From IMG/VR virus record IMGVR_UViG_2565956607_000008, positions 1 to 20,816 of that record: a stretch of 20,816 nt of DNA; one strand, 5' to 3'. The position numbers were made by a program, and so were the translations under genes. Shown piece after piece: positions 1,248 through 16,482 of this stretch. The notes under the pieces were generated by a model. The model made no database searches. It worked only from the letters and a program-made list of their open reading frames with translations, and was not told the origin of the DNA. How positions within the stretch are numbered: position 1 is the stretch's first letter; the number at the start of each line of letters is the position of its first letter. This stretch comes from a virus (Duplodnaviria; Heunggongvirae; Uroviricota; Caudoviricetes).

Positions 1248-2003
1248 TTATTTTGGACGCTTTTTGGTTGCTTTTTTCTTAAATTTGGGGGCGTACTTAT
1301 CCAAAGCGTTCGTTAGCAATCTCCGAAATGTATCTGGGTGGGTATCGCTGTCTTCATCGTTCCCGAATATTATGTTGTTTTCTATTACTTGGGCACTAAC
1401 CCTATTGATACTAAGGTTTCCTCCACTATGGAAATCTTTGCTTGATTCAAATAAGGCAATCGCCATTCCGGCGATCATCTTTAAAGCCGTATCTTTTCCT
1501 CTCCAGTTTTGTTCTCTTTCTACTTTTTTTGACAGTGCTCCAATTTCTGGTTCGTTATCTGGAACATTCATATCCAGTTCTGGGAAGAAGTTCACAACCT
1601 CGGAGCGCTTGAAATAAAACGAATCGTAAGACCCATACCAATCATCCTCATCATCGTGATATAAAAAGTCTTCCCCTTTCCTAACGTTGAAAGTCCCTTC
1701 TTCCCCCGGTATCGGGCTCTCCCTGTATTCATGCCCCATAGCCAGAAGACCTAAAAACTCCACACACTGCTTTTCAAAGTCGTCATTAGTTGTAAAACCT
1801 GATACCCAATCGAACTGATAAAAGCCCAGCCCCCCTAAAGTATCTGGTTTAGCTTTGCTCAATCTGTAGTTACTTAAGATAGCGGCAGCGATCATTCTTT
1901 CATTTTCATTGTTTAGTCTTGCCAGTTCGCTGATCAGATTACCAAACCAGATTTTATCTTCTGACTCGTTATAAAACGCATCTAGTCCTGTCATCTTAGT
2001 CAC
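1248..2003 (-). CDS. Hypothetical cargo protein of unknown function (251 aa), translationally coupled to the integrase
   Basis: Start overlaps the integrase stop by 8 nt (1996..2003); acidic central region; no motif recognised. The antisense ORF 1156..1617 is judged spurious. Confidence 0.55.
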   Translation of the reverse strand: MTKMTGLDAFYNESEDKIWFGNLISELARLNNENERMIAAAILSNYRLSKAKPDTLGGLGFYQFDWVSGFTTNDDFEKQCVEFLGLLAMGHEYRESPIPGEEGTFNVRKGEDFLYHDDEDDWYGSYDSFYFKRSEVVNFFPELDMNVPDNEPEIGALSKKVEREQNWRGKDTALKMIAGMAIALFESSKDFHSGGNLSINRVSAQVIENNIIFGNDEDSDTHPDTFRRLLTNALDKYAPKFKKKATKKRPK

Positions 2004-3282
2004 GGCGTGTTCTCCTTCCGAACTCGTAAGGGCTTATATGTATTTCTCGATTGGCGTCCAGATAATCTGCCCACCATTGAAGCATTAGTTTGCGCTCTTC
2101 TAAGTAATCAGCCTTGTGCTTGTAGGCTCTTTTAACGTCTTTATATTCTTTGTGGCTCATCTGGCGCTCTACTGCGTCCTCCTGCCACAAACCGGACTCC
2201 ATCAGGGAACTACAGGCTGTGGCACGGAATCCATGTCCAGTTACGTCCTCTTGCGTGTTATAGCCCATTAAGCGTAATGCCTTGTTTACCGTGTTTTCAC
2301 TCATCACGCCTTTGGTGTTTCTTTCATTCGGAAACACAACATCGTAGCTTCCGCTTAGTTCTCTCAACTGCTTTACAATAGAAACAGCCTGACGGCTAAG
2401 AAGCACGATATGTTCGTCTTTTCCCGTTTTTGTGCCACGGGTGGAAAACCTCACACCATCGATAGGCTCTCTTTTTTTAGGGATAATCCACTCAGCCCGA
2501 TCAAGGTCAAACTCTTTCCAACGGGCAAACCTTAACTCGCTTGAACGAACAAATGTCAACATGGTTAGCTCAATGGCAAGGCGGGTAAGAGGATTACCTT
2601 TAAAGCTGCCCAATCGAGTGAAAAAGTCTGGTAAATCTCTGGGATGTAGTGCGGCATGATGCTTAGTTTCATATTGCATTAACCGGACATCGAGATCATT
2701 CGTGATGATTTCTGTCTTAATGCCGCTCAGACGGGCGCTATGTATGATGTCCTTAACTCGTTGTTTAAGTCGGTTGGCTGTATCGTGTTTCCCGGCGTCA
2801 TCTACCTTCTTAAACAAAGGTAAAATTGTCATCGCCTCCAGTTTGCGAATATCCGAAGTGCCAATGTGAGGGAAAATATACATTTCAAGGCTTCTAAGTA
2901 CGCGTTTTCGTTGGTCTTCGTTCCACATCTGGTGGCTTTCAACCCATTGACGTCCTATTGTCTCAAAAGTGAATGCGCCTTTTTCTTCTGCTTTTGCTGC
3001 TCTTTGCTCTGCTTTGGGATCTATCCCCTTGACTAACAACTTTTTGGCGTTGTCTCGTTTTTCTCTGGCGTCTTGTAAGCTAATGGTTGGATATACACCA
3101 AAAGCAAGTCTGTCTTCTTTCTTATCTGATGGGCGGCGATACTTCATTCGCCAATACTTCGACCCGGTCTGGGATACTTCAAGATAAAGACCACCACCAT
3201 CAGACAATTTATAAGTTTTGTCTCGTGGCTTAGCTGCTTTGCACTGACGGTCTGTTAATTTGTTGAGGGTATTTCTGGACAT
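1996..3282 (-). CDS. int: Tyrosine site-specific integrase, P4/CP4-57 type (428 aa)
   Basis: N-terminal DUF4102-like arm-binding pattern (LTDRQCKAAKP...DGGGLYLEV...YWRMKYR), C-terminal catalytic region with HGFRAT and later Y; lies 165 bp from the 3' end of the tRNA on the same strand. Confidence 0.9.
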   Translation of the reverse strand: MSRNTLNKLTDRQCKAAKPRDKTYKLSDGGGLYLEVSQTGSKYWRMKYRRPSDKKEDRLAFGVYPTISLQDAREKRDNAKKLLVKGIDPKAEQRAAKAEEKGAFTFETIGRQWVESHQMWNEDQRKRVLRSLEMYIFPHIGTSDIRKLEAMTILPLFKKVDDAGKHDTANRLKQRVKDIIHSARLSGIKTEIITNDLDVRLMQYETKHHAALHPRDLPDFFTRLGSFKGNPLTRLAIELTMLTFVRSSELRFARWKEFDLDRAEWIIPKKREPIDGVRFSTRGTKTGKDEHIVLLSRQAVSIVKQLRELSGSYDVVFPNERNTKGVMSENTVNKALRLMGYNTQEDVTGHGFRATACSSLMESGLWQEDAVERQMSHKEYKDVKRAYKHKADYLEERKLMLQWWADYLDANREIHISPYEFGRRTRRD

Positions 3283-3446: not shown

Positions 3447-3521
3447 TGGTGTCCCCTGCAGGAATCGAACCTGCAATTAGCCCTTAGGAGGGGCTCGTTA
3501 TATCCATTTAACTAAGGGGAC
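3447..3521 (-). tRNA. argW: tRNA-Arg (anticodon CCU)
   Basis: Reverse complement folds by hand into a 75-nt cloverleaf: 7-bp acceptor stem GTCCCCT/AGGGGAC, D-arm GTTA/TAAC, anticodon stem AGCCC/GGGCT with loop CTCCTAA (anticodon CCT), T-arm GCAGG-TTCGATT-CCTGC, discriminator A, CCA end. Confidence 0.9.
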
Positions 3522-3716: not shown

Positions 3717-4892
3717 GTGGCCCTTAGTGATACCAAACTCCGTAGCATCAATGCTAAGCCATACAGCGGCGCAGCTGAGGTCACAGATGGTGACGGGCTA
3801 AGTGTACGCATAACTCCCACAGGCACGATCACATTCCAGTTTCGTTATCGCTGGAACGGTAAGCCCGTTCGTCTCTCCATTGGCCGCTATCCCGCTATGT
3901 CTCTCAAGGAGGCGCGCGTAGTCGTCGGTGAGATGCGCGAATTGTACCTCAAGGGACTAAACCCGAAAAATTATTTTGCCAAAGAAGATGGCGAGTTGAC
4001 TCTCAAAGAGTGCCTGGATCAGTGGTGGGGTAAGTATGTTGAAACGCTGAAGCCGAACACTCAGACGCTGTACAAGTCCGTTGTGTACAACACGATGTAC
4101 ACAGAATTCCCGGACGCTCCGGTAGTTAACATTCCTATTTCTGCATGGGTGCGTTTCTTTGATAAGCAGGAAAAGAAGAACAGCAAAAAGGCCAGAGTGC
4201 TTCTTCTACAGCTACGTTCTGTAATGAACTGGTGTATCAGCCGCCAGTTGATCCCATCGTGCGAGGTCCTGAAGCTTAGCGTTAAGAGCATTGGGAAAAA
4301 ACCTGATGTGGGTAGCCGAGTTCTCACATATACCGAGTTGGCAAAAATCTGGCTGGCGCTGGAGAATAACAAGATCGTGACTTCCAACAAGGTGCTTCAT
4401 CAGCTGCTTTTGCTTTGGGGAGCCAGGCTATCAGAGCTGCGTCTGGCTACCGCCAGTGAATTTAACATGGATGATCTTATCTGGACGACGCCAGGAGAGC
4501 ATTCCAAGATGGGTAACGTTATCCGTCGCCCGGTGTTTGGCCAGGTGAAACCTTTTGTTGAAAGGCTCCTCAATGCTGGAAATGATGTTCTGTTTCCCGG
4601 CCAGGAACTGGACAAGCCAATAGATCGCTCATCAGCTAATCTCTATATGAAAAAGTTAAGGAATAAAATTGATATCCCAGAATGGCGAACACATGACTTC
4701 AGGCGCTCGCTGGTGACAAATTTATCAGGTGAAGGGGTTATGCCCCACGTCACCGAAAAGATGTTGGGGCATGAGTTGGGAGGAGTGATGGCGGTGTATA
4801 ACAAGCACGATTGGCTGGTAGAACAGAAAGAAGCATATGAGCTATATGCAGATAAAATTTTTTGGCATGTCAAGAAAATAAATGACCAATAA
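3717..4892 (+). CDS. int: Tyrosine integrase of the lambdoid prophage (about 391 aa; GTG start proposed)
   Basis: The ORF track gives 3552..4892, but the conserved integrase N-terminus (ALSDTKLRSINAKP...DGDGLSVRI...FQFRYRWNGK) begins at an in-frame GTG at 3717 preceded by AGGA; C-terminal catalytic region has HDFRRS. Start choice is uncertain. Confidence 0.8.
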   Translation: MALSDTKLRSINAKPYSGAAEVTDGDGLSVRITPTGTITFQFRYRWNGKPVRLSIGRYPAMSLKEARVVVGEMRELYLKGLNPKNYFAKEDGELTLKECLDQWWGKYVETLKPNTQTLYKSVVYNTMYTEFPDAPVVNIPISAWVRFFDKQEKKNSKKARVLLLQLRSVMNWCISRQLIPSCEVLKLSVKSIGKKPDVGSRVLTYTELAKIWLALENNKIVTSNKVLHQLLLLWGARLSELRLATASEFNMDDLIWTTPGEHSKMGNVIRRPVFGQVKPFVERLLNAGNDVLFPGQELDKPIDRSSANLYMKKLRNKIDIPEWRTHDFRRSLVTNLSGEGVMPHVTEKMLGHELGGVMAVYNKHDWLVEQKEAYELYADKIFWHVKKINDQ

Positions 4893-4928
4893 CTTTAGAC
4901 GTAAGTATTGAATTCTCTGGGGTATGAA

Positions 4929-6245
4929 ATGGAAATGATATTTAATGAAGATAAAGATATTGAAAATGCATTGCAGTGGCTATCTAAAACTCTACCAGAA
5001 CCTAATTCATTGTTTGATAGAATGTGTCTGGCACAAGAGAGTTATATTAAAGAATCGGCCTTGAAGGTTAATATTGGAAAGGAATCGAAAATAGAATGGC
5101 ATGGATGTGATGTTGTCGCAGGTTTTTTCTCTCAAGCTAAATCCTATCTTGATAATCGACGTTCTTATGATATTTCAGCTGCATCTAAAATACTTCCTTG
5201 GGTGAAACAACTTGGTGTTAATGTTGAATATCTTAACAATATTCCAGGTGCGGTAGAACGTGCTAAAAGGATGTTGGAAAGTTATACCGTTTATCCGGAT
5301 AATGCATTGTTTGAATTAATATTAGCAGGAAATTATGCGGCTAAAGGTTTCGATGTTGAGTTTATACCTGAGCAGAAAGGAATAGCTAAAACTCCTGAGT
5401 TTAAATGTAGCTTTGATGGTAAGGCTCTTTTTGTTGTTGAATGCAAAAGATTAAAAAAGGGGCAATACGCCCAACAAGAGGAGTCGGCTCATTCAACAAG
5501 AGCTTCTTTTATTGAATCTCGTGTACATCTGAAAAGAATGAGTGTCTGGATGGATGTCACATATAAATGTGAAGTAAATGAAACACCGGACGATTATCTT
5601 TTAAAACATTTATGTAATTATTATGGGAAAGAATATTCCTGGAGTGATGACTACGGTAGTGGTTTTATAAAGCCTGCAAATTTGCGTAGGGTGAATGATG
5701 ATATTAAATTGAACGGTTCTCTATCATTACACACCAAATTGGCAAGACTAATTAAAACATCTCCACTCGATGGTGAGTTTTACAATGTTTATGCGTTTGG
5801 TCGACCAGATGAACGAGATCCACGTTTTTTCTCTAAAATTAATTATGCAACATTACTGACATGGCGAAATGTAAGCGAGGTGTCATTAGAAAACAGGTCC
5901 AGGCATATCACTAAACATTTAAAAGAAATTGAAGATCAAATATCAAATAATGGACTTGGTGTAGGGCATTTAGTTATTGATGCTGACGTACAAAAAGATG
6001 TCGCTGATAAACGGAGGGAAAAAAATATTGAGGCTGCACTTTCTTTCCGGATAAAGTCCAAGCTTGTTCGGTTAAATATTCATTATCTTGTTCCTCGTGT
6101 TGATGAAGATAATTCGTGGCTGGTGGACGAAACTCTTGAATTTTTCAGCGGTGACGAGTTGATTAGTCATTTGTTTCCTGAGGTGAAATTATTTTCAGGG
6201 ATGGAACTTTTTGAAAATGATTTGCCTGCATGGCATCAGAAATGA
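4929..6245 (+). CDS. AT-rich cargo protein with a PD-(D/E)xK nuclease-like motif (about 438 aa)
   Basis: ATG at 4929 preceded by GGGG (ORF track uses TTG at 4908). Residues GFDVEF...x...FVVECKRL give a D...ExK pattern. Immediately downstream of the integrase and followed by an intrinsic terminator. Confidence 0.6.
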   Translation: MEMIFNEDKDIENALQWLSKTLPEPNSLFDRMCLAQESYIKESALKVNIGKESKIEWHGCDVVAGFFSQAKSYLDNRRSYDISAASKILPWVKQLGVNVEYLNNIPGAVERAKRMLESYTVYPDNALFELILAGNYAAKGFDVEFIPEQKGIAKTPEFKCSFDGKALFVVECKRLKKGQYAQQEESAHSTRASFIESRVHLKRMSVWMDVTYKCEVNETPDDYLLKHLCNYYGKEYSWSDDYGSGFIKPANLRRVNDDIKLNGSLSLHTKLARLIKTSPLDGEFYNVYAFGRPDERDPRFFSKINYATLLTWRNVSEVSLENRSRHITKHLKEIEDQISNNGLGVGHLVIDADVQKDVADKRREKNIEAALSFRIKSKLVRLNIHYLVPRVDEDNSWLVDETLEFFSGDELISHLFPEVKLFSGMELFENDLPAWHQK

Positions 6246-6252
6246 TTTTTAT

Positions 6253-6280
6253 GCCACCCAGGATAGGGTGGCTTTTTATT
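6253..6280 (+). terminator. Intrinsic terminator after the int-cargo unit
   Basis: Hairpin GCCACCC-AGGATA-GGGTGGC followed by TTTTTATT, directly after the stop at 6243..6245. Confidence 0.6.
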
Positions 6281-6469
6281 CTAACTATGGCTACCACTAA
6301 TCCCACCATTTTCAATCCATTGAAACACAGCTTTTCTGCTATATCGCGTAGGATAAGTGAGAACTGGATTTGGGAAATTATGATCTTTACGTAAACGCCA
6401 TACTGCTGTTTTTTTCTTGCCCAGTAATTCGAATACTTCTTTCTCTTCCATAAAATCTGTAGAAGTCAT
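6281..6469 (-). CDS. xis: Excisionase-like HTH protein (about 62 aa)
   Basis: Internal ATG at 6467..6469 with GAGGTG ribosome-binding site; translation MTSTDFMEEKEVFELLGKKKTAVWRLRKDHNFPNPV... is an AlpA/Xis-type HTH; located beside int. ORF-track start at 6544 would overlap the next gene. Confidence 0.6.
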   Translation of the reverse strand: MTSTDFMEEKEVFELLGKKKTAVWRLRKDHNFPNPVLTYPTRYSRKAVFQWIENGGISGSHS

Positions 6470-7427: not shown

Positions 7428-7623
7428 GCTTCACCTCGATAGGCTTGATGGTGTCGAGCAGCAGTCGGCGGCGCGTATTTTCTGCAAAGTGACGGCGCCC
7501 GGTTTCTTTGTGGTAAAACTCGTTTTTGCCGACGACCCACATCCGCTCTGTCTGGTGCAGTTTTTTTACCTTCGGACCGTCTTTGGTGATAACGGTGCCG
7601 GTATGGGTTTTTACGATTGTCAT
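7420..7623 (-). CDS. Hypothetical early-operon protein (about 67 aa)
   Basis: Internal ATG 7621..7623 preceded by GGGGAGG; ATGA overlap with the stop of the ParB-like gene. Confidence 0.5.
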   Translation of the reverse strand: MTIVKTHTGTVITKDGPKVKKLHQTERMWVVGKNEFYHKETGRRHFAENTRRRLLLDTIKPIEVKHV

Positions 7624-8405
7624 ACAGCCTCCCCAAGCACCCAACGGAGTGCGCTCGCATACTCACCCTCGGCTGATTCCAGGGCTTTTGTGATTTCTTT
7701 GCGGGTTTTCAGGCGCGGCTTTGCCTCGCCGAGGATCTGACGCTGACGCCGGGCTTTTTCATGGCCGGTTGTGCCAGCAGTTGCCGCTTCGATTTCAGAT
7801 ACCTTCTCCCGCTGCTCTTCAGGTTTAAGCGATGCCAGCTGACGCGCCTGGGTAACAGTGACCGTTCCGGACTCCACTGCATCGCGAACAGCCTGGGTGG
7901 CATCCAGCAGTGACAGCGTTGCGCGTACGGTCTGGACACTCACGCCAAACATCAGCGCTAAATCGTCCTCGTCGTGCCCGCGCTCCAGCGCATCAGCCAT
8001 TTTCTTTGCTCGGCCCAGTGGCGTATCTGCTTGGCGGATTTCGTTAGCACTTACCATCGCCTGCGCCATGCGAACGGCGGAGCCACGTTTAGCGACTGCC
8101 GGAACCAGTAACGGTTCTTTACCCTCTTTCAACAGTCGCTTGTTGGCTTCCAGTGTATGGCGCACACGCTGGCGACCATCGACTACACAAGACAGCCCTG
8201 TTTCCGGGTCTTTCCAGACGATAATCGGCTCAAGAACGCCCTGATCCATGATGTTCAGCACCATTGCCTCGCTGATAGGCAGGTGGATACGCTCATCGTA
8301 AAGCGGGTGCGTTTTGTCCGTAACCAAGTGCAGGTTTTCAGGTTCGAACGTTAAAACATTCGTTTTGCCGCTGGCGCCGTATACCACCTTTGAGTCTTTA
8401 GCCAT
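7620..8405 (-). CDS. ParB-like nuclease domain protein (261 aa)
   Basis: VVDGRQRVRHTLEA resembles the ParB/sulfiredoxin-fold arginine motif; common in lambdoid early regions. Confidence 0.65.
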   Translation of the reverse strand: MAKDSKVVYGASGKTNVLTFEPENLHLVTDKTHPLYDERIHLPISEAMVLNIMDQGVLEPIIVWKDPETGLSCVVDGRQRVRHTLEANKRLLKEGKEPLLVPAVAKRGSAVRMAQAMVSANEIRQADTPLGRAKKMADALERGHDEDDLALMFGVSVQTVRATLSLLDATQAVRDAVESGTVTVTQARQLASLKPEEQREKVSEIEAATAGTTGHEKARRQRQILGEAKPRLKTRKEITKALESAEGEYASALRWVLGEAV

Positions 8406-11453: not shown

Positions 11454-12396
11454 ATTAACAGGATACGTCTGGGACGCTTGTGCATCTTCGGGGATGAAGC
11501 TATCCAGCGTGGCAATCATGGCGCGCCTGGCTGACTTCAGCAACGATGAGGGTGTTTGCTGGCCTTCTATTGCGACCATATCCCGTCAGATTGGCGCTGG
11601 TGAAAGTACTGTCAGAACGGCGATAGCTGCACTTGAGAAAGAGGGGTGGCTCACTCGTACGCAGCGCCGCAACGGCAACCGTAATGCATCGAACGTCTAC
11701 CAGCTCAACGTTTCCAAACTACAGAAAGCGGCATTTTCTCACCTGTCAGTTTCTGACACATCAAAATCTGACGCGTCAAAATCTGATGCGTCAAAAATTG
11801 ACCCCTCAAAATTTGATGCGTCGGAATCCATCAAAAAAACCGGTTTTGACCCGTCAGAATCTGGTGGGGATCCGTCAGTAAAATCAACTACTGATCCATC
11901 AGATATAAATCCTTCTTGTCCGGACGCTTCGCAACCGGACGAACAGGGCTCTGCTGATGAATTTCTGTCACGACATCCTGACGCGGTGGTGTACAGCGCT
12001 GCAAAGCGGCAGTGGGGCAGCCAGGACGATTTAACCTGCGCTGAGTTCATTTGGGGAAAAATTATCAGCATGTACGAACTGGCGGCTGAAAGTGATGGTG
12101 AGGTAGTTCGCCCTAAAGAACCAAACTGGACCGCATGGGCGAATGAGGTTCGCCTGATGGTGATGCAGGACGGGAGAACCCATAAACAAATTTGCTCACT
12201 TTTCAAGCGCGCCAACAAAGATTCGTTCTGGTGTAAAAACGTGCTCAGCCCGTCGAAGCTGCGGGAAAAATGGGATGAGCTGTCGTTAAAACTATCTGCT
12301 CCACTCAATAGCTCCCGCCAGGAATCGTCCATTTCGCGAGCCAGCTTCGACGGGGTTGATTACTCATTGCCAGAAAACTCGGGGTTCCGCACATGA
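11443..12396 (+). CDS. Replication initiator, lambda O-like architecture (317 aa)
   Basis: N-terminal winged-helix-like region, then pentapeptide repeats (SKSDA-like) encoded by 15-bp DNA iterons, then C-terminal domain; stop overlaps the dam start (ATGA). Confidence 0.7.
   Translation: MSTKLTGYVWDACASSGMKLSSVAIMARLADFSNDEGVCWPSIATISRQIGAGESTVRTAIAALEKEGWLTRTQRRNGNRNASNVYQLNVSKLQKAAFSHLSVSDTSKSDASKSDASKIDPSKFDASESIKKTGFDPSESGGDPSVKSTTDPSDINPSCPDASQPDEQGSADEFLSRHPDAVVYSAAKRQWGSQDDLTCAEFIWGKIISMYELAAESDGEVVRPKEPNWTAWANEVRLMVMQDGRTHKQICSLFKRANKDSFWCKNVLSPSKLREKWDELSLKLSAPLNSSRQESSISRASFDGVDYSLPENSGFRT
11751..11835. repeat. Iteron array inside the replication gene (putative prophage origin)
   Basis: Four to five tandem 15-bp units TCAAAATCTGACGCG / TCAAAATCTGATGCG / TCAAAAATTGACCCC / TCAAAATTTGATGCG containing TGACGCGTCA-type palindromes, followed by an A-rich stretch. 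Confidence 0.55.
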
Positions 12397-13202
12397 GCAA
12401 GCCATTTCTGAAATGGGCTGGTGGAAAGTATACCCAGCTGGCTGACCTGTTCGTGCATATCCCGGCAGGGAAACGCCTGATAGATCCATTCGTTGGTGGT
12501 GGGTCAGTATTCCTGAACAGCGAAAAGCACGCAGATTACCTGCTGGCGGACGTTAACCCGGACCTGATTAATCTGTATCAGATGTTAGCGGTCGTGCCGG
12601 ATGAAGTGGAATTGAAGGCCCGCTGGATGTTCGAGCACATGCGGTCACCAGATGGTTATGAGCTGATCCGTTCCGAGTTCAACGCTCAGACGCTGGATGC
12701 TACTGAACGCGCAGCTGCATTCCTGTATCTCAACCGGCATTGCTTCAATGGCCTGATGCGCTACAACCAGGCTAACAAATTCAATGTGGGCTGGGGAGGC
12801 TACAAGGCTCCGTATTACCCGATGGATGAGATGAAAGCCTTCGCGGCTATGGCGCATAACTGCGTATTCATGACTGCTGATTACCGTCGGACAATCAGCC
12901 TGGCCGGGAAAGGGGATGTGGTTTACTGCGATCCGCCTTACGAACCGATGCCGGGAACAGCCGGATTCACTGCCTACGCCGCTGGTGGGTTTAACTGGGA
13001 GAACCAGGTAGACCTGGCGAAGCAATGTGTATCTGCCTTTCACCGCGGGGCTCGGGTAGTAATTTCTAACTCATCCGCACCGAAGGTTCTCGATCTGTAC
13101 CGGGAGCATGGTTTTAACCTGCAATTCATCAAAGCGCGCCGTTCGATCTCCTGCAAAAGCAGTACGCGGGAAGTCGCCAAAGATGTCGTGGCTATCCTGT
13201 GA
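12393..13202 (+). CDS. dam: DNA adenine methyltransferase, Dam family (N6-adenine, orphan; 269 aa)
   Basis: Motif FLKWAGGK near the N-terminus and catalytic DPPY (VYCDPPYEP); no adjacent restriction endonuclease gene. Confidence 0.9.
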   Translation: MSKPFLKWAGGKYTQLADLFVHIPAGKRLIDPFVGGGSVFLNSEKHADYLLADVNPDLINLYQMLAVVPDEVELKARWMFEHMRSPDGYELIRSEFNAQTLDATERAAAFLYLNRHCFNGLMRYNQANKFNVGWGGYKAPYYPMDEMKAFAAMAHNCVFMTADYRRTISLAGKGDVVYCDPPYEPMPGTAGFTAYAAGGFNWENQVDLAKQCVSAFHRGARVVISNSSAPKVLDLYREHGFNLQFIKARRSISCKSSTREVAKDVVAIL

Positions 13203-14225: not shown

Positions 14226-14570
14226 ATGCGTGATATGTATGAAATTTTAGACCGCTGGGGAGCATGGGCTGCAGCTGATAGTAGTGGTGTTGATTGGAAA
14301 CCCATTGCCGCAGGTTTTAAAGGTTTGTTACCTCATGGAAAGAAAACACGTCATCAATGCGATGATGATGAAGGAATCATGATTGACGGCTGTGTAGCGC
14401 GATTGCGGAAGTATAAGCCAGAAGAGTATGAGTTAATAATTGCTCATTTTGTTATTGGTTTCTCATTAAGAAGCATCGCGAAGAAACGGAAGTGTTCTGA
14501 TGGGACCATCAGGAAGGAATTGCAGACTGCAATGGGGTTTGTAGATGGTTGTTTAGAAATGGTTAACTGA
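14226..14570 (+). CDS. Late-gene antitermination protein Q (QuuD-like family; 114 aa)
   Basis: MRD...LDRWGAWAA...DWKPIAAGFKGL...RHQCDDDEG...DGCVARL...CSDGTIRKELQTAMGFVDGCL closely follows the pattern I recall for DLP12-type Q antiterminators. Confidence 0.8.
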   Translation: MRDMYEILDRWGAWAAADSSGVDWKPIAAGFKGLLPHGKKTRHQCDDDEGIMIDGCVARLRKYKPEEYELIIAHFVIGFSLRSIAKKRKCSDGTIRKELQTAMGFVDGCLEMVN

Positions 14571-14606: not shown

Positions 14607-15068
14607 TTAAAAGCTTTTAAGATATTTGCTTTTGATTTTTTCACTAACACTTTGTAATTCATGCAGTGTTGTGCCAACTTTATCAGCTTCATATTTTGTG
14701 TCATTGGTACATGCTTGGCGCAACTCTGCTATGAAACCTGTATCTTTTGTGCGGCTTGCATCAAGGAGTTGAATGCGTTCACATATAAACTCAACATGCC
14801 GTACGGACGATGTAAATATGAAATAAGATACTCTTTTGTCTTTTTCTTTATTCTCAAGTAGTTCCAGCATTTCACTATAAATGAAATCTAACTTGTAAAA
14901 CAACTCGTCTATCAATCTGTTTATTTCAAGTTTTTTGAGATTGTTTGCATTATTTTTCCGCGCCAAGTAGGCAGTAACTATCCATCCAATGATAGTTAAA
15001 CATATGCCCACAATAGCAATTATGGTAGCTGGTAGTGCCCATAAATTTGGAGTAACGGCTTGTTCCAT
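14607..15068 (-). CDS. Cassette gene C: single-pass membrane protein with helical cytoplasmic domain (153 aa)
   Basis: N-terminal hydrophobic helix (LWALPATIIAIVGICLTIIGWIVTAYLA) then charged helical region; 1-nt TAATG overlap with gene B; GAGGGATG ribosome-binding site; AT-rich. Confidence 0.7.
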   Translation of the reverse strand: MEQAVTPNLWALPATIIAIVGICLTIIGWIVTAYLARKNNANNLKKLEINRLIDELFYKLDFIYSEMLELLENKEKDKRVSYFIFTSSVRHVEFICERIQLLDASRTKDTGFIAELRQACTNDTKYEADKVGTTLHELQSVSEKIKSKYLKSF

Positions 15069-15385
15069 TATTTGGCATCCCTCAGAGCATCATTGATATA
15101 AGTAACAACCTCGGCAACTAATGCCGGATCCTTACTTTTAAGATTTTTCTTTAGGTTGTTAATCTTATCTTTGCTGATTCCCTTTCGCACCAGTCCACCA
15201 AAGGCCTCCTCCAAAAATGAGGATCCATACCCGAAAACCCCGTCAAAGTCAACGCAAATTTCATCATTTTCCAGTATTGCAGGAACTAAATAAAATTCGC
15301 GGAATTTTTCGCCACTATTCTCTCCAAGCGACTCGTAGCGAGGGCCAGGATATCTGGAGAATTCCTTGATATATAAAGTTTTCAT
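15068..15385 (-). CDS. Cassette gene B: STAS-like (DUF4325-like) small protein (105 aa)
   Basis: VDFDGVFGYGSSFLEEAFGGL parallels the anti-sigma-factor-antagonist motif around the phosphorylatable serine; strong AAGGAGAAG ribosome-binding site; ATGA overlap with gene A. Confidence 0.7.
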   Translation of the reverse strand: MKTLYIKEFSRYPGPRYESLGENSGEKFREFYLVPAILENDEICVDFDGVFGYGSSFLEEAFGGLVRKGISKDKINNLKKNLKSKDPALVAEVVTYINDALRDAK

Positions 15386-16482
15386 GCCGCTTCTCCTTCA
15401 GTTGGTAGTGGCACACTCCACTCAACAATTGTACCATTGATGGATTTATGAGCATCCCACATCAATTCGGGCCTTGCTTTCTTCCTTTTAGTATATCTGT
15501 AGTTCCCCTTGTTTGATATGATTCTGAGTTGGGCATGTGTAAAATTATCTATAATTGATTGTAAATCCGTGCCGCCTTTCCCTCTGTAACCAAGTTTTGT
15601 TCTTGTGCGTTTAACCTGTAATGATGCTTTTATATGCTCTGAATCTAATTCAATAGGCTTGCCTATAATTTCAATAAGTTTTGATAAAACTCTTTCTCCT
15701 TGAGTTAATTTCAAAGTTTTGGGAATTCCAACTCCTAAATCGCATATGGATAAAATCAATTTATTATTCATTATTGCTGCAAAACACCACCATTTATTTT
15801 TAATGTTGTTCTTTTGCTTGTCGTATAGATCATCTCTATATGCGTGCTCTACCGAGTTGGACATCGCCTCAATTAGAGGTCTGTATAAATTAGTGTAATC
15901 CGTTCCCATTTTCTCAGTTACTGCTTCTAATAGTTTCCCAGCAATTGTAGAATCAACCAGTTCACCTCTAATAACCTCCCAGCACTTAACAGATGGGTTC
16001 TCTTTCATCTCTCGACCTTTTACCCCAAATGCAGAATATATACCAATACGGTTAAGTACGCTATCAACTACATGATGTTCGCCTTTCTGTGTAGTTTTGA
16101 ATGGAGGGCGAGTTACAGTGTATCTTATATCTGGATAGTTACTTTTTAAACTCTCCAGTTTTGCTAGTAAATATAATCCTGCAGCGGCCGATATGTAAAT
16201 CGTATTTCTGAAGCAAACATATATTTTTTGAGTTTTAAACTGCTCTTGCTTGGCTTTTTTTTCAATATTTTCAATAAAACTTATTACGTTGTCATGGTAA
16301 TTAGAGTTATAGATATCAAGAATAGTAGGTGCAACTATTTTTTCAGAATTTGATTTTCGTATGTTACCATTACGTTTGTATCTTTTGTGTTCGGTTGACT
16401 TTTTGCTTGCGTTTGCACGGAGAAACCTTTTTCTCCTTATTCTTTTTAACACTGAAGTATAGAGCTGTTCTATTTTTTTCAT
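15382..16482 (-). CDS. Cassette gene A: protein with basic N-terminal region and C-terminal GHKL/HATPase-like ATP-binding domain (366 aa)
   Basis: AAGGAG ribosome-binding site 8 nt upstream; N-box-like EAMSNSVEHAY (E205..N209..H213), G1-like CDLGVGI (D248xGxG), G2-like GYRGKGGTDL (about 299..308); AT-rich. Confidence 0.7.
   Translation of the reverse strand: MKKIEQLYTSVLKRIRRKRFLRANASKKSTEHKRYKRNGNIRKSNSEKIVAPTILDIYNSNYHDNVISFIENIEKKAKQEQFKTQKIYVCFRNTIYISAAAGLYLLAKLESLKSNYPDIRYTVTRPPFKTTQKGEHHVVDSVLNRIGIYSAFGVKGREMKENPSVKCWEVIRGELVDSTIAGKLLEAVTEKMGTDYTNLYRPLIEAMSNSVEHAYRDDLYDKQKNNIKNKWWCFAAIMNNKLILSICDLGVGIPKTLKLTQGERVLSKLIEIIGKPIELDSEHIKASLQVKRTRTKLGYRGKGGTDLQSIIDNFTHAQLRIISNKGNYRYTKRKKARPELMWDAHKSINGTIVEWSVPLPTEGEAA

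Follow-up and report, generated by a model that had tools for sequence, protein, structure and literature searches.

What is the function of an AT-rich gene that lies between the integrase gene and the xis-like gene of a lambdoid prophage? The question was raised by a Caudoviricetes sequence of 20,816 nucleotides (IMG/VR record IMGVR_UViG_2565956607_000008, positions 1 to 20,816), the whole of which is called the window here. The gene, hereafter the cargo gene (4929..6245, plus strand, 438 amino acids plus a stop codon), encodes a member of an unnamed family of three-domain proteins with a predicted nuclease fold. The protein has previously been undescribed, and its family is missed by current defense finders, Pfam and NCBIfam. 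Judging from alignments and a structural model, it would be a self-contained, metal-dependent nuclease of the PD-(D/E)xK fold, encoded by an accessory (moron) gene that occupies the variable int-xis slot of a prophage at the argW site. The reading toward which we lean, with moderate confidence, is that of a stand-alone defense nuclease of a new family that directly cleaves foreign DNA bearing a particular feature.

The nuclease assignment rests on a central core. An AlphaFold2 model of the cargo protein, built from a 52-sequence alignment, reached a predicted local distance difference test score (pLDDT) of 90.6 and a predicted template modeling score (pTM) of 0.89. Secondary structure assigned to this model by DSSP places a helix (residues 124–138), three strands (142–145, 158–162 and 165–175), a second helix (179–202) and a last strand (206–212) within residues 124–212 (5298..5564, plus strand). 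In other words, the model predicts the alpha-beta-beta-beta-alpha-beta topology of the restriction-endonuclease fold. Residues are numbered from ATG 4929 unless the upstream TTG is stated. Across an alignment of 211 full-length homologues, with 18–99% identity to the query, E129 and E171 are conserved in 100% and K173 and E184 in 99.5% of the sequences, while position 157 is acidic in 211/211 (D in 184 and E in 27) and preceded by a proline in 88%. In the model, the first core helix carries E129 and the helix after strand 3 carries E184; [D/E]157 immediately precedes strand 2, and E171-x-K173 falls within strand 3. The motif E129 ... P156-[D/E]157 ... E171-x-K173 ... E184 thereby appears to follow the textbook E...PD...(D/E)xK arrangement of the PD-(D/E)xK fold. 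The predicted catalytic codons on the plus strand are those of E129 (5313–5315), E157 (5397–5399), E171 (5439–5441), K173 (5445–5447) and E184 (5478–5480).

An earlier reading of the window from its sequence only had proposed a restriction-endonuclease fold at this point, and the core topology together with the conserved acidic and ExK residues bears that proposal out. Its choice of residues needs correction. The segments GFDVEF and VVECKRL are present and the ExK is conserved, but the aspartate of GFDVEF (D142, or D149 from the TTG) is D in only 31% of the 211 homologues; we therefore rejected it as the catalytic Asp and replaced it by the PD/PE at positions 156–157. Conservation among homologues, on which that reading had staked its D/E/K triad, was found for E171 (100%) and K173 (99.5%) but not for D142. 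Of the residues numbered from the TTG, D149 was placed correctly, whereas E179 and K181 were each off by one, the actual residues being E178 and K180.

Two regions flank the core. The N-terminal region (residues 1–120; 4929..5288, plus strand) is all-helical, with helices at residues 9–117 of the model and with near-invariant R31, D61, P90 and G96; it has no recognized relative and no Pfam match. The C-terminal region (residues 233–410; 5625..6158, plus strand) consists of alternating strands and helices (residues 236–407 in the model) and matches nothing known. In a diverse set of 104 sequences, with 17–61% identity, only four columns are invariant (E129, E171, Q337 and H347), and a further six exceed 90% (D157, K173, E184, W312, R362 and E401). 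Because Q337 and H347 are invariant alongside E129 and E171, the C-terminal region appears to hold residues as constrained as the predicted catalytic ones. We considered whether this region could be a second, degenerate nuclease domain arisen by internal duplication, and rejected this, as the core and the C-terminal halves aligned with an hhalign probability below 2%. Two thirds of the protein are without a recognizable fold relative.

In the structural comparison proposed along with the sequence-only reading, Foldseek of the model against the PDB returned nothing significant, with matches to Cap4 and Cap5 at E ~1. Similarity to solved PD-(D/E)xK members was found, with values of 8.7 for AF1548, 8.3 and 8.1 for NucC, 8.1 for NgoMIV, 7.4 for CdiA-CT EC869, 7.1 for LlaBIII, 7.0 for an XisH-like protein, 6.7 for Hjc, 6.5 for both Can2 and HindIII, 6.3 for HamA, and 6.0 for both SduA and McrC.

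Sequence searches gave a large and coherent family. A word-index search returned 139 relatives, almost all of which have 430–475 amino acids and cover 98–100% of the query. Identity to the query falls from 99% in Klebsiella and E. coli to 36–40% in Burkholderia, Cupriavidus, Variovorax and Acidisoma; none of the 139 holds a Pfam domain. An exhaustive profile search over 1.84 billion cluster representatives yielded 669 family clusters (at 50% identity) at E<=1e-3, 386 at E<=1e-10 and 165 at E<=1e-30. As full-length matches dominate this search, the three-part architecture is fixed across the family. In line with the earlier remark that the rest of the protein was unrecognized, the window protein matched nothing in Pfam, NCBIfam or PADLOC, its only family match being PHROG 37220 (function not assigned; residues 49–207, 1e-12). 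The 52 aligned homologues likewise had no Pfam match, the best nuclease-related hit being AHJR-like at E 0.17 in 1/52; PDB sequence profile searches with the cargo protein were empty, and a literature search on accession WP_023149821 found no paper under that accession. Carriers of the family are prophages, conjugative plasmids, integrative and conjugative elements (ICEs) and defense islands.

We then considered the position of the gene in its prophage. The prophage is bounded by its chromosomal attachment site, the tRNA-Arg(CCT) gene argW (3447..3521, minus strand; ARAGORN), and the same tRNA adjoins the same integrase gene in E. coli p10A, W409, M505, EC31 and Ec42. The integrase is of the P4-type tyrosine class (3717..4892, plus strand; Pfam Arm-DNA-bind_3 8.5e-19, Phage_integrase 1.6e-17); its ORF opens at TTG 3552, and the RefSeq start in the 100%-identical p10A locus corresponds to 3717. 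On the other side of the cargo gene lies a convergent gene (6281..6469, minus strand) for a small helix-turn-helix (HTH) protein of 62 amino acids, which is xis/AlpA/Cox-like on the basis of weak HTH_17, Phage_Cox and AlpA matches. Among 5426 complete E. coli genomes, just two, p10A and p10B, carry the exact cargo gene, and many other E. coli genomes have the same int and backbone at ~94% DNA identity with a different insert. In W409 the slot holds, in opposite orientation, a DUF2971 gene that PADLOC lists as candidate PDC-S31 (3.5e-36), in EC31 three genes of which the first is PDC-S42 (2.2e-37), in M505 a 286-amino-acid gene without assigned function, and in Ec42 a 437-amino-acid allele of the same family with only 63% amino-acid identity. 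PDC entries in PADLOC are predictions, not all of them validated; two of the alternative occupants are in this sense listed defense candidates. Because sister prophages hold different, unrelated inserts within flanks that are ~94% identical, the int...xis slot of argW-site lambdoid prophages is a point of cargo exchange, and the description of the gene as integrase-proximal cargo stands. The IMG/VR prophage contigs that carry the gene all (6/6) place it ~1.2 kb from the contig end, in the same int-adjacent position.

The reading frame itself is well defined. Ending with the stop at 6245, it spans 445 amino acids when read from TTG 4908 and 438 when read from ATG 4929, and the chance of a 445-codon open frame at this base composition is P ~2e-16 (~7e-12 over the whole window). 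ATG 4929 is supported as the start, and we prefer it on three grounds: RefSeq begins the gene there in E. coli p10A, whose locus is 100% identical; homologues of 437–438 amino acids align from it; and a GGGG run at 4919–4922 sits 6 nt upstream. This Shine-Dalgarno-like run belongs to a spacer of 36 nt (4893..4928, plus strand) that follows the int stop at 4892 and in which a terminator scan found no terminator-like site; co-transcription of the cargo gene with int, up to the terminator at 6253–6280, is therefore plausible. This intrinsic terminator (6253..6280, plus strand; pattern scan and ViennaRNA) reads GCCACCC-AGGATA-GGGTGGC followed by TTTTTATT, and its 7-bp stem with 6 GC pairs (6253–6272) folds at -14.9 kcal/mol as RNA. 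Since the T-run after the hairpin is on the plus strand only, one may speculate that leftward early transcripts could, after induction, read antisense through the cargo gene. Its guanine-plus-cytosine (GC) content is 0.358, against 0.471 for int and 0.52 for the prophage backbone to the right, and at third codon positions (GC3) 0.256 against 0.527 for int. The gap to the integrase, the strong terminator at the end of the ORF and the higher AT content relative to int had all been read correctly from the letters.

The genomic context of the relatives points to defense. PADLOC matches among 133 neighbors from 17 non-redundant loci comprised GajA+GajB of Gabija (two loci), ZorE (4e-176), the Lamassu-like LmuB (3e-128), a prokaryotic Argonaute (pAgo)-associated restriction endonuclease (2e-153), MADS, AriA-like (PARIS-like) ATPases and type II methylases; the Pfam matches of these 133 neighbors included integrases and IS66/rve transposases. 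Relatives lie beside Zorya-type genes (the ZorE match at 4e-176) and a ScoMcrA-like HNH gene in an E. coli island. They adjoin Gabija-like genes in Pectobacterium, directly after a GajA/GajB-like pair, and on an A. tumefaciens plasmid, where the neighbors encode an AAA ATPase and a helicase. Others are found at the end of a P2-like prophage in Burkholderia, beside a DGQHR/DndB-like gene and an integrase; in an ICE with Tra genes; and in an island of Cupriavidus rich in insertion sequences (ISs). Plasmid records with relatives, at 22–29% identity, number 65, of which 53 are conjugative. In the P2-like Escherichia phage 899, a relative of 461 amino acids (hhalign probability 99.1) is encoded between the genes for tail-fibre assembly and for the tail sheath, and it keeps the FEL..., PD, VECKR, Q, H and ET motifs; its 90% cluster is present on at least 1000 contigs. 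This homologue occupies the P2 Z/fun locus, which has been described as a second defense-enriched hotspot of P2 and holds validated defense genes (PMC9519451; 10.1101/2024.10.15.618418). Directly after it, a 348-amino-acid gene (L033, 6495–7541) has a faint PADLOC match to PDC-M04A (7e-4).

The earlier suggestion that the gene stands alone also held. We clustered the neighbors of at least 70 amino acids in 27 loci, and no partner gene recurs across independent loci, shorter partners not having been systematically searched in loci other than the window. Only tyrosine integrases recur, in 5 independent loci. A conserved partner gene was rejected as a candidate, since SMEK_N and 473-amino-acid neighbors recur solely within one related ICE lineage.

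Considering that neither a methylase, nor an antitoxin, nor a signal synthase accompanies the gene, the enzyme must be intrinsically safe for host and prophage. Two routes to such safety can be envisaged: recognition of a feature that is found in foreign nucleic acid only, which would amount to direct immunity, or autoinhibition until triggered, which would amount to abortive infection. In the reading that we prefer, the lysogen would express the gene, probably as part of an int transcript that runs as far as the terminator, and the product would protect the lysogen from superinfecting phages or from other DNA that invades it. Target discrimination or gating of the nuclease core would fall to the helical N-terminal and the alpha/beta C-terminal regions, and incoming DNA with a feature that host and prophage DNA lack would be cleaved directly, in a Type IV-like or otherwise feature-dependent manner. 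A feature-dependent enzyme would need no methylase or antitoxin, which fits a lone gene. The putative defense role as such is a reading of genomic context, well supported by the neighbors and the hotspot position. We favor direct immunity over abortive infection mainly because, in a functional screen, 7 of 11 putative PD-(D/E)xK DNase systems acted by direct immunity and not by abortive infection (PMC9519451); the present evidence does not separate the two.

Several observations weigh against direct cleavage by a defense nuclease. A promoter scan did not rise above background; the word-index relatives are all named “hypothetical protein”; and neither the window protein nor any of four distant homologues matched a family of PADLOC-DB v2.0.0 at E<=1. 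In addition, co-location with defense islands is correlative, and a relative on a Sphaerotilus plasmid lies between an IS5 element and amidase/ParAB genes, with no defense neighborhood.

A broader variant of the defense role, which we put forward tentatively as a less likely possibility, is a new single-protein immune system in which the two conserved flanking domains constitute an as yet unseen sensing or recognition module that gates the core. Within this variant, the nuclease could in some lineages serve DNA-backbone modification as an alternative partner for restriction, an idea that we raise because distant members repeatedly lie beside dndBCD with DGQHR and beside an Ssp-like cluster. 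These distant members, at 22–25% identity, adjoin DNA phosphorothioation modules. On a Rhizobium WSM1689 plasmid (L031, 1–7311), a relative with an hhalign probability of 100 lies beside dndBCD and DGQHR_dnd_1 (9e-140); on an Agrobacterium sp. T29 plasmid (L042, 1–7308), the neighbors are a cysteine desulfurase, a DUF4007 gene and a large ATPase, Ssp-like from annotation; and in Burkholderia cepacia (L004, 9408–11211), a DGQHR protein is encoded one gene from the relative. Such neighbors could reflect plain island co-location or a functional link. An obligatory linkage to DGQHR/Dnd was rejected, as it was encountered in 3 loci only and is a lead, not a rule.

Among the explanations that compete with direct immunity, an abortive-infection or toxin-type nuclease survives best, although we consider it rather unlikely. 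Such an enzyme would be silenced by its own N- and C-terminal domains and switched on by a phage protein or another infection cue, upon which it would degrade host and phage DNA, or tRNA or other RNA, and kill or arrest the cell. It takes the second of the two routes to safety, and the argument from the functional screen is the main consideration that speaks for direct cleavage instead.

That the nuclease serves its mobile element, by recombination, transposition or homing, or as a helper for excision or replication, seems improbable to us. PD-(D/E)xK proteins of transposition do exist, among them TnsA and Rpn; the family is always found on mobile DNA; a tyrosine integrase adjoins it in the 5 independent loci mentioned above, and its position at the prophage end is the same in all 6 IMG/VR loci. 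RefSeq moreover labels homologues from Rhizobium and Agrobacterium “transposase” (L031, 5971–7311; L032, 5794–7140; L042, 5941–7308). However, the two of these that were scanned (L031 and L032, not L042) had no NCBIfam match, and neither the window protein nor the 52 closer homologues matched a transposase in Pfam, so these names are probably inherited misannotation. Meaningful flanking inverted repeats were also absent; the two arms of the sole pair (16 nt, 88% complementarity) fall within int and within the xis-like gene, respectively. Without model match or terminal inverted repeats, identity as a transposase or insertion sequence was rejected. Most of the 27 loci, furthermore, lack an adjacent integrase, and sister prophages that share its integrase and backbone carry unrelated cargo; because they do without it, the cargo gene is dispensable for the phage life cycle.

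Similarly improbable is a lysogenic-conversion gene, acting in regulation, counter-defense or host physiology and using the nuclease fold for binding only. Variable prophage slots do also hold virulence and counter-defense cargo (10.1101/2021.01.21.427644; 10.1101/2024.10.15.618418), and two thirds of the protein are without assignable function. Against this, the E...[D/E]...ExK...E residues are kept at 99.5–100% in very divergent members, which favors catalysis over binding, and the neighbors are defense genes rather than virulence genes. Finally, a toxin-antitoxin or toxin-immunity pair was rejected, since no neighbor of at least 70 amino acids is recurrent across independent loci and, in the window, no more than 36 nt separate the gene from int, while the terminator follows it directly.

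Other features of the window and of related loci deserve description. The xis-like gene heads a leftward early operon with genes for a dATP/dGTP pyrophosphohydrolase (DUF550), a ParB/RepB/Spo0J-like protein (7620–8405, minus strand) and a LexA-like repressor. A related prophage of Klebsiella quasipneumoniae has a DndB/DGQHR-like gene at a comparable place (L012, 10464–11540); both this gene and the ParB-like gene of the window belong to the ParB/Srx-type superfamily. The xis-like gene is conserved prophage backbone and not specific to the cargo. We rejected it as a cargo-specific inhibitor, because the same gene is kept beside four different cargos; the idea of a neighbor-encoded inhibitor was modeled on Tha/Ith of staphylococcal prophages (PMC11087260). 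An adenine methylase of the prophage is encoded at 12393–13202, ~6 kb from the cargo gene.

The studied prophage lies on the 5' side of the tRNA-Arg(CCT) gene, and on the 3' side lies a second P4-type tyrosine integrase gene (1996–3282, minus strand; Arm-DNA-bind_3 6.6e-29), accompanied by a 251-amino-acid gene of no assigned function (region 1248–3282, minus strand), so that two different integrative elements flank argW. This left-hand integrase is also present in E. coli Ec42, whereas chromosomal csc genes take its place in p10A. A second AT-rich cassette (14607–16482, minus strand; GC 0.33–0.39), between the Q antiterminator gene (14226–14570) and the lysis genes, looks like another cargo slot. 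It encodes proteins of 366, 105 and 153 amino acids, the second being STAS-like (DUF4325, 3e-14) and the other two of no assigned function, and none of the three has a PADLOC match. Elsewhere, a contig labeled Chryseobacterium sp. 18061 (L014, 6494–10723) carries a 54%-identical homologue with the same neighbors as the E. coli island L002, namely an HTH gene, a 257-amino-acid gene, a resolvase gene and a DUF1643 gene. This context is odd for Bacteroidota and suggests contamination or very recent transfer.

A nuclease in a prophage slot will not surprise the specialist; what stands out is the breadth of an unannotated family with a conserved module of no assigned function. The family is widespread in Klebsiella pneumoniae prophages, in E. 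coli islands (including those of O157:H7), in P2-like phages and on conjugative plasmids. If the protein defends against phages, an unannotated one-gene system would be added to the catalogue, and the int-xis slot of argW-site lambdoid prophages would be marked as an exchange point for defense cargo. The flanking domains are as conserved as the active site, and an understanding of their control over the nuclease could bring to light a new mode of discrimination between foreign and self nucleic acid. The corrected residues (E129, E157, E171, K173, E184, Q337 and H347) make the hypothesis directly testable.

How does the protein compare with known systems? From Mrr/AF1548-type and other Type IV enzymes it differs in matching neither Pfam Mrr_cat nor any other curated nuclease family, in lacking known reader domains such as winged-helix, SRA or EVE, and in the central place of its core between two unassigned domains. 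Type II restriction-modification fits poorly: methyltransferases are near few loci only, belong to different families and are not conserved in their adjacency, and none adjoins the window gene. Unlike NucC, Cap4 and Can2/Card1, effectors of cyclic-oligonucleotide-based antiphage signaling systems (CBASS) and of type III CRISPR, the cargo protein has no SAVED or CARF domain and is about twice the size of NucC, and family members have no cyclase or Cas10 nearby; with no sensor domain, and no synthase among the neighbors, a CBASS or CRISPR effector was rejected. To Shedu SduA and Hachiman HamA the likeness is at the level of the fold only, as their PADLOC models do not match and a HamB-type helicase partner is missing. 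The CdiA-CT toxins (EC869 DNase and Burkholderia tRNases) are C-terminal modules of secreted CdiA with a dedicated immunity gene, whereas the cargo protein lacks a delivery domain and has no immunity gene nearby. The central, non-catalytic domain (AC3–AC5) of eukaryotic acetyl-CoA carboxylase is also listed among the closest known systems. PADLOC v2 includes the PD-T4, PD-T7 and PD-lambda systems, and none of its models matches the window protein or the P2-borne homologue. On that basis, the cargo family is not known to be among the systems tested in the E. coli functional screen. The single-gene systems from that screen are likewise prophage-borne and lone, with weak PD-(D/E)xK similarity and no methylase (PMC9519451). 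On the strength of its alignments and model, the cargo protein would represent a new family, with a new architecture, within the stand-alone PD-(D/E)xK nucleases of defense type.

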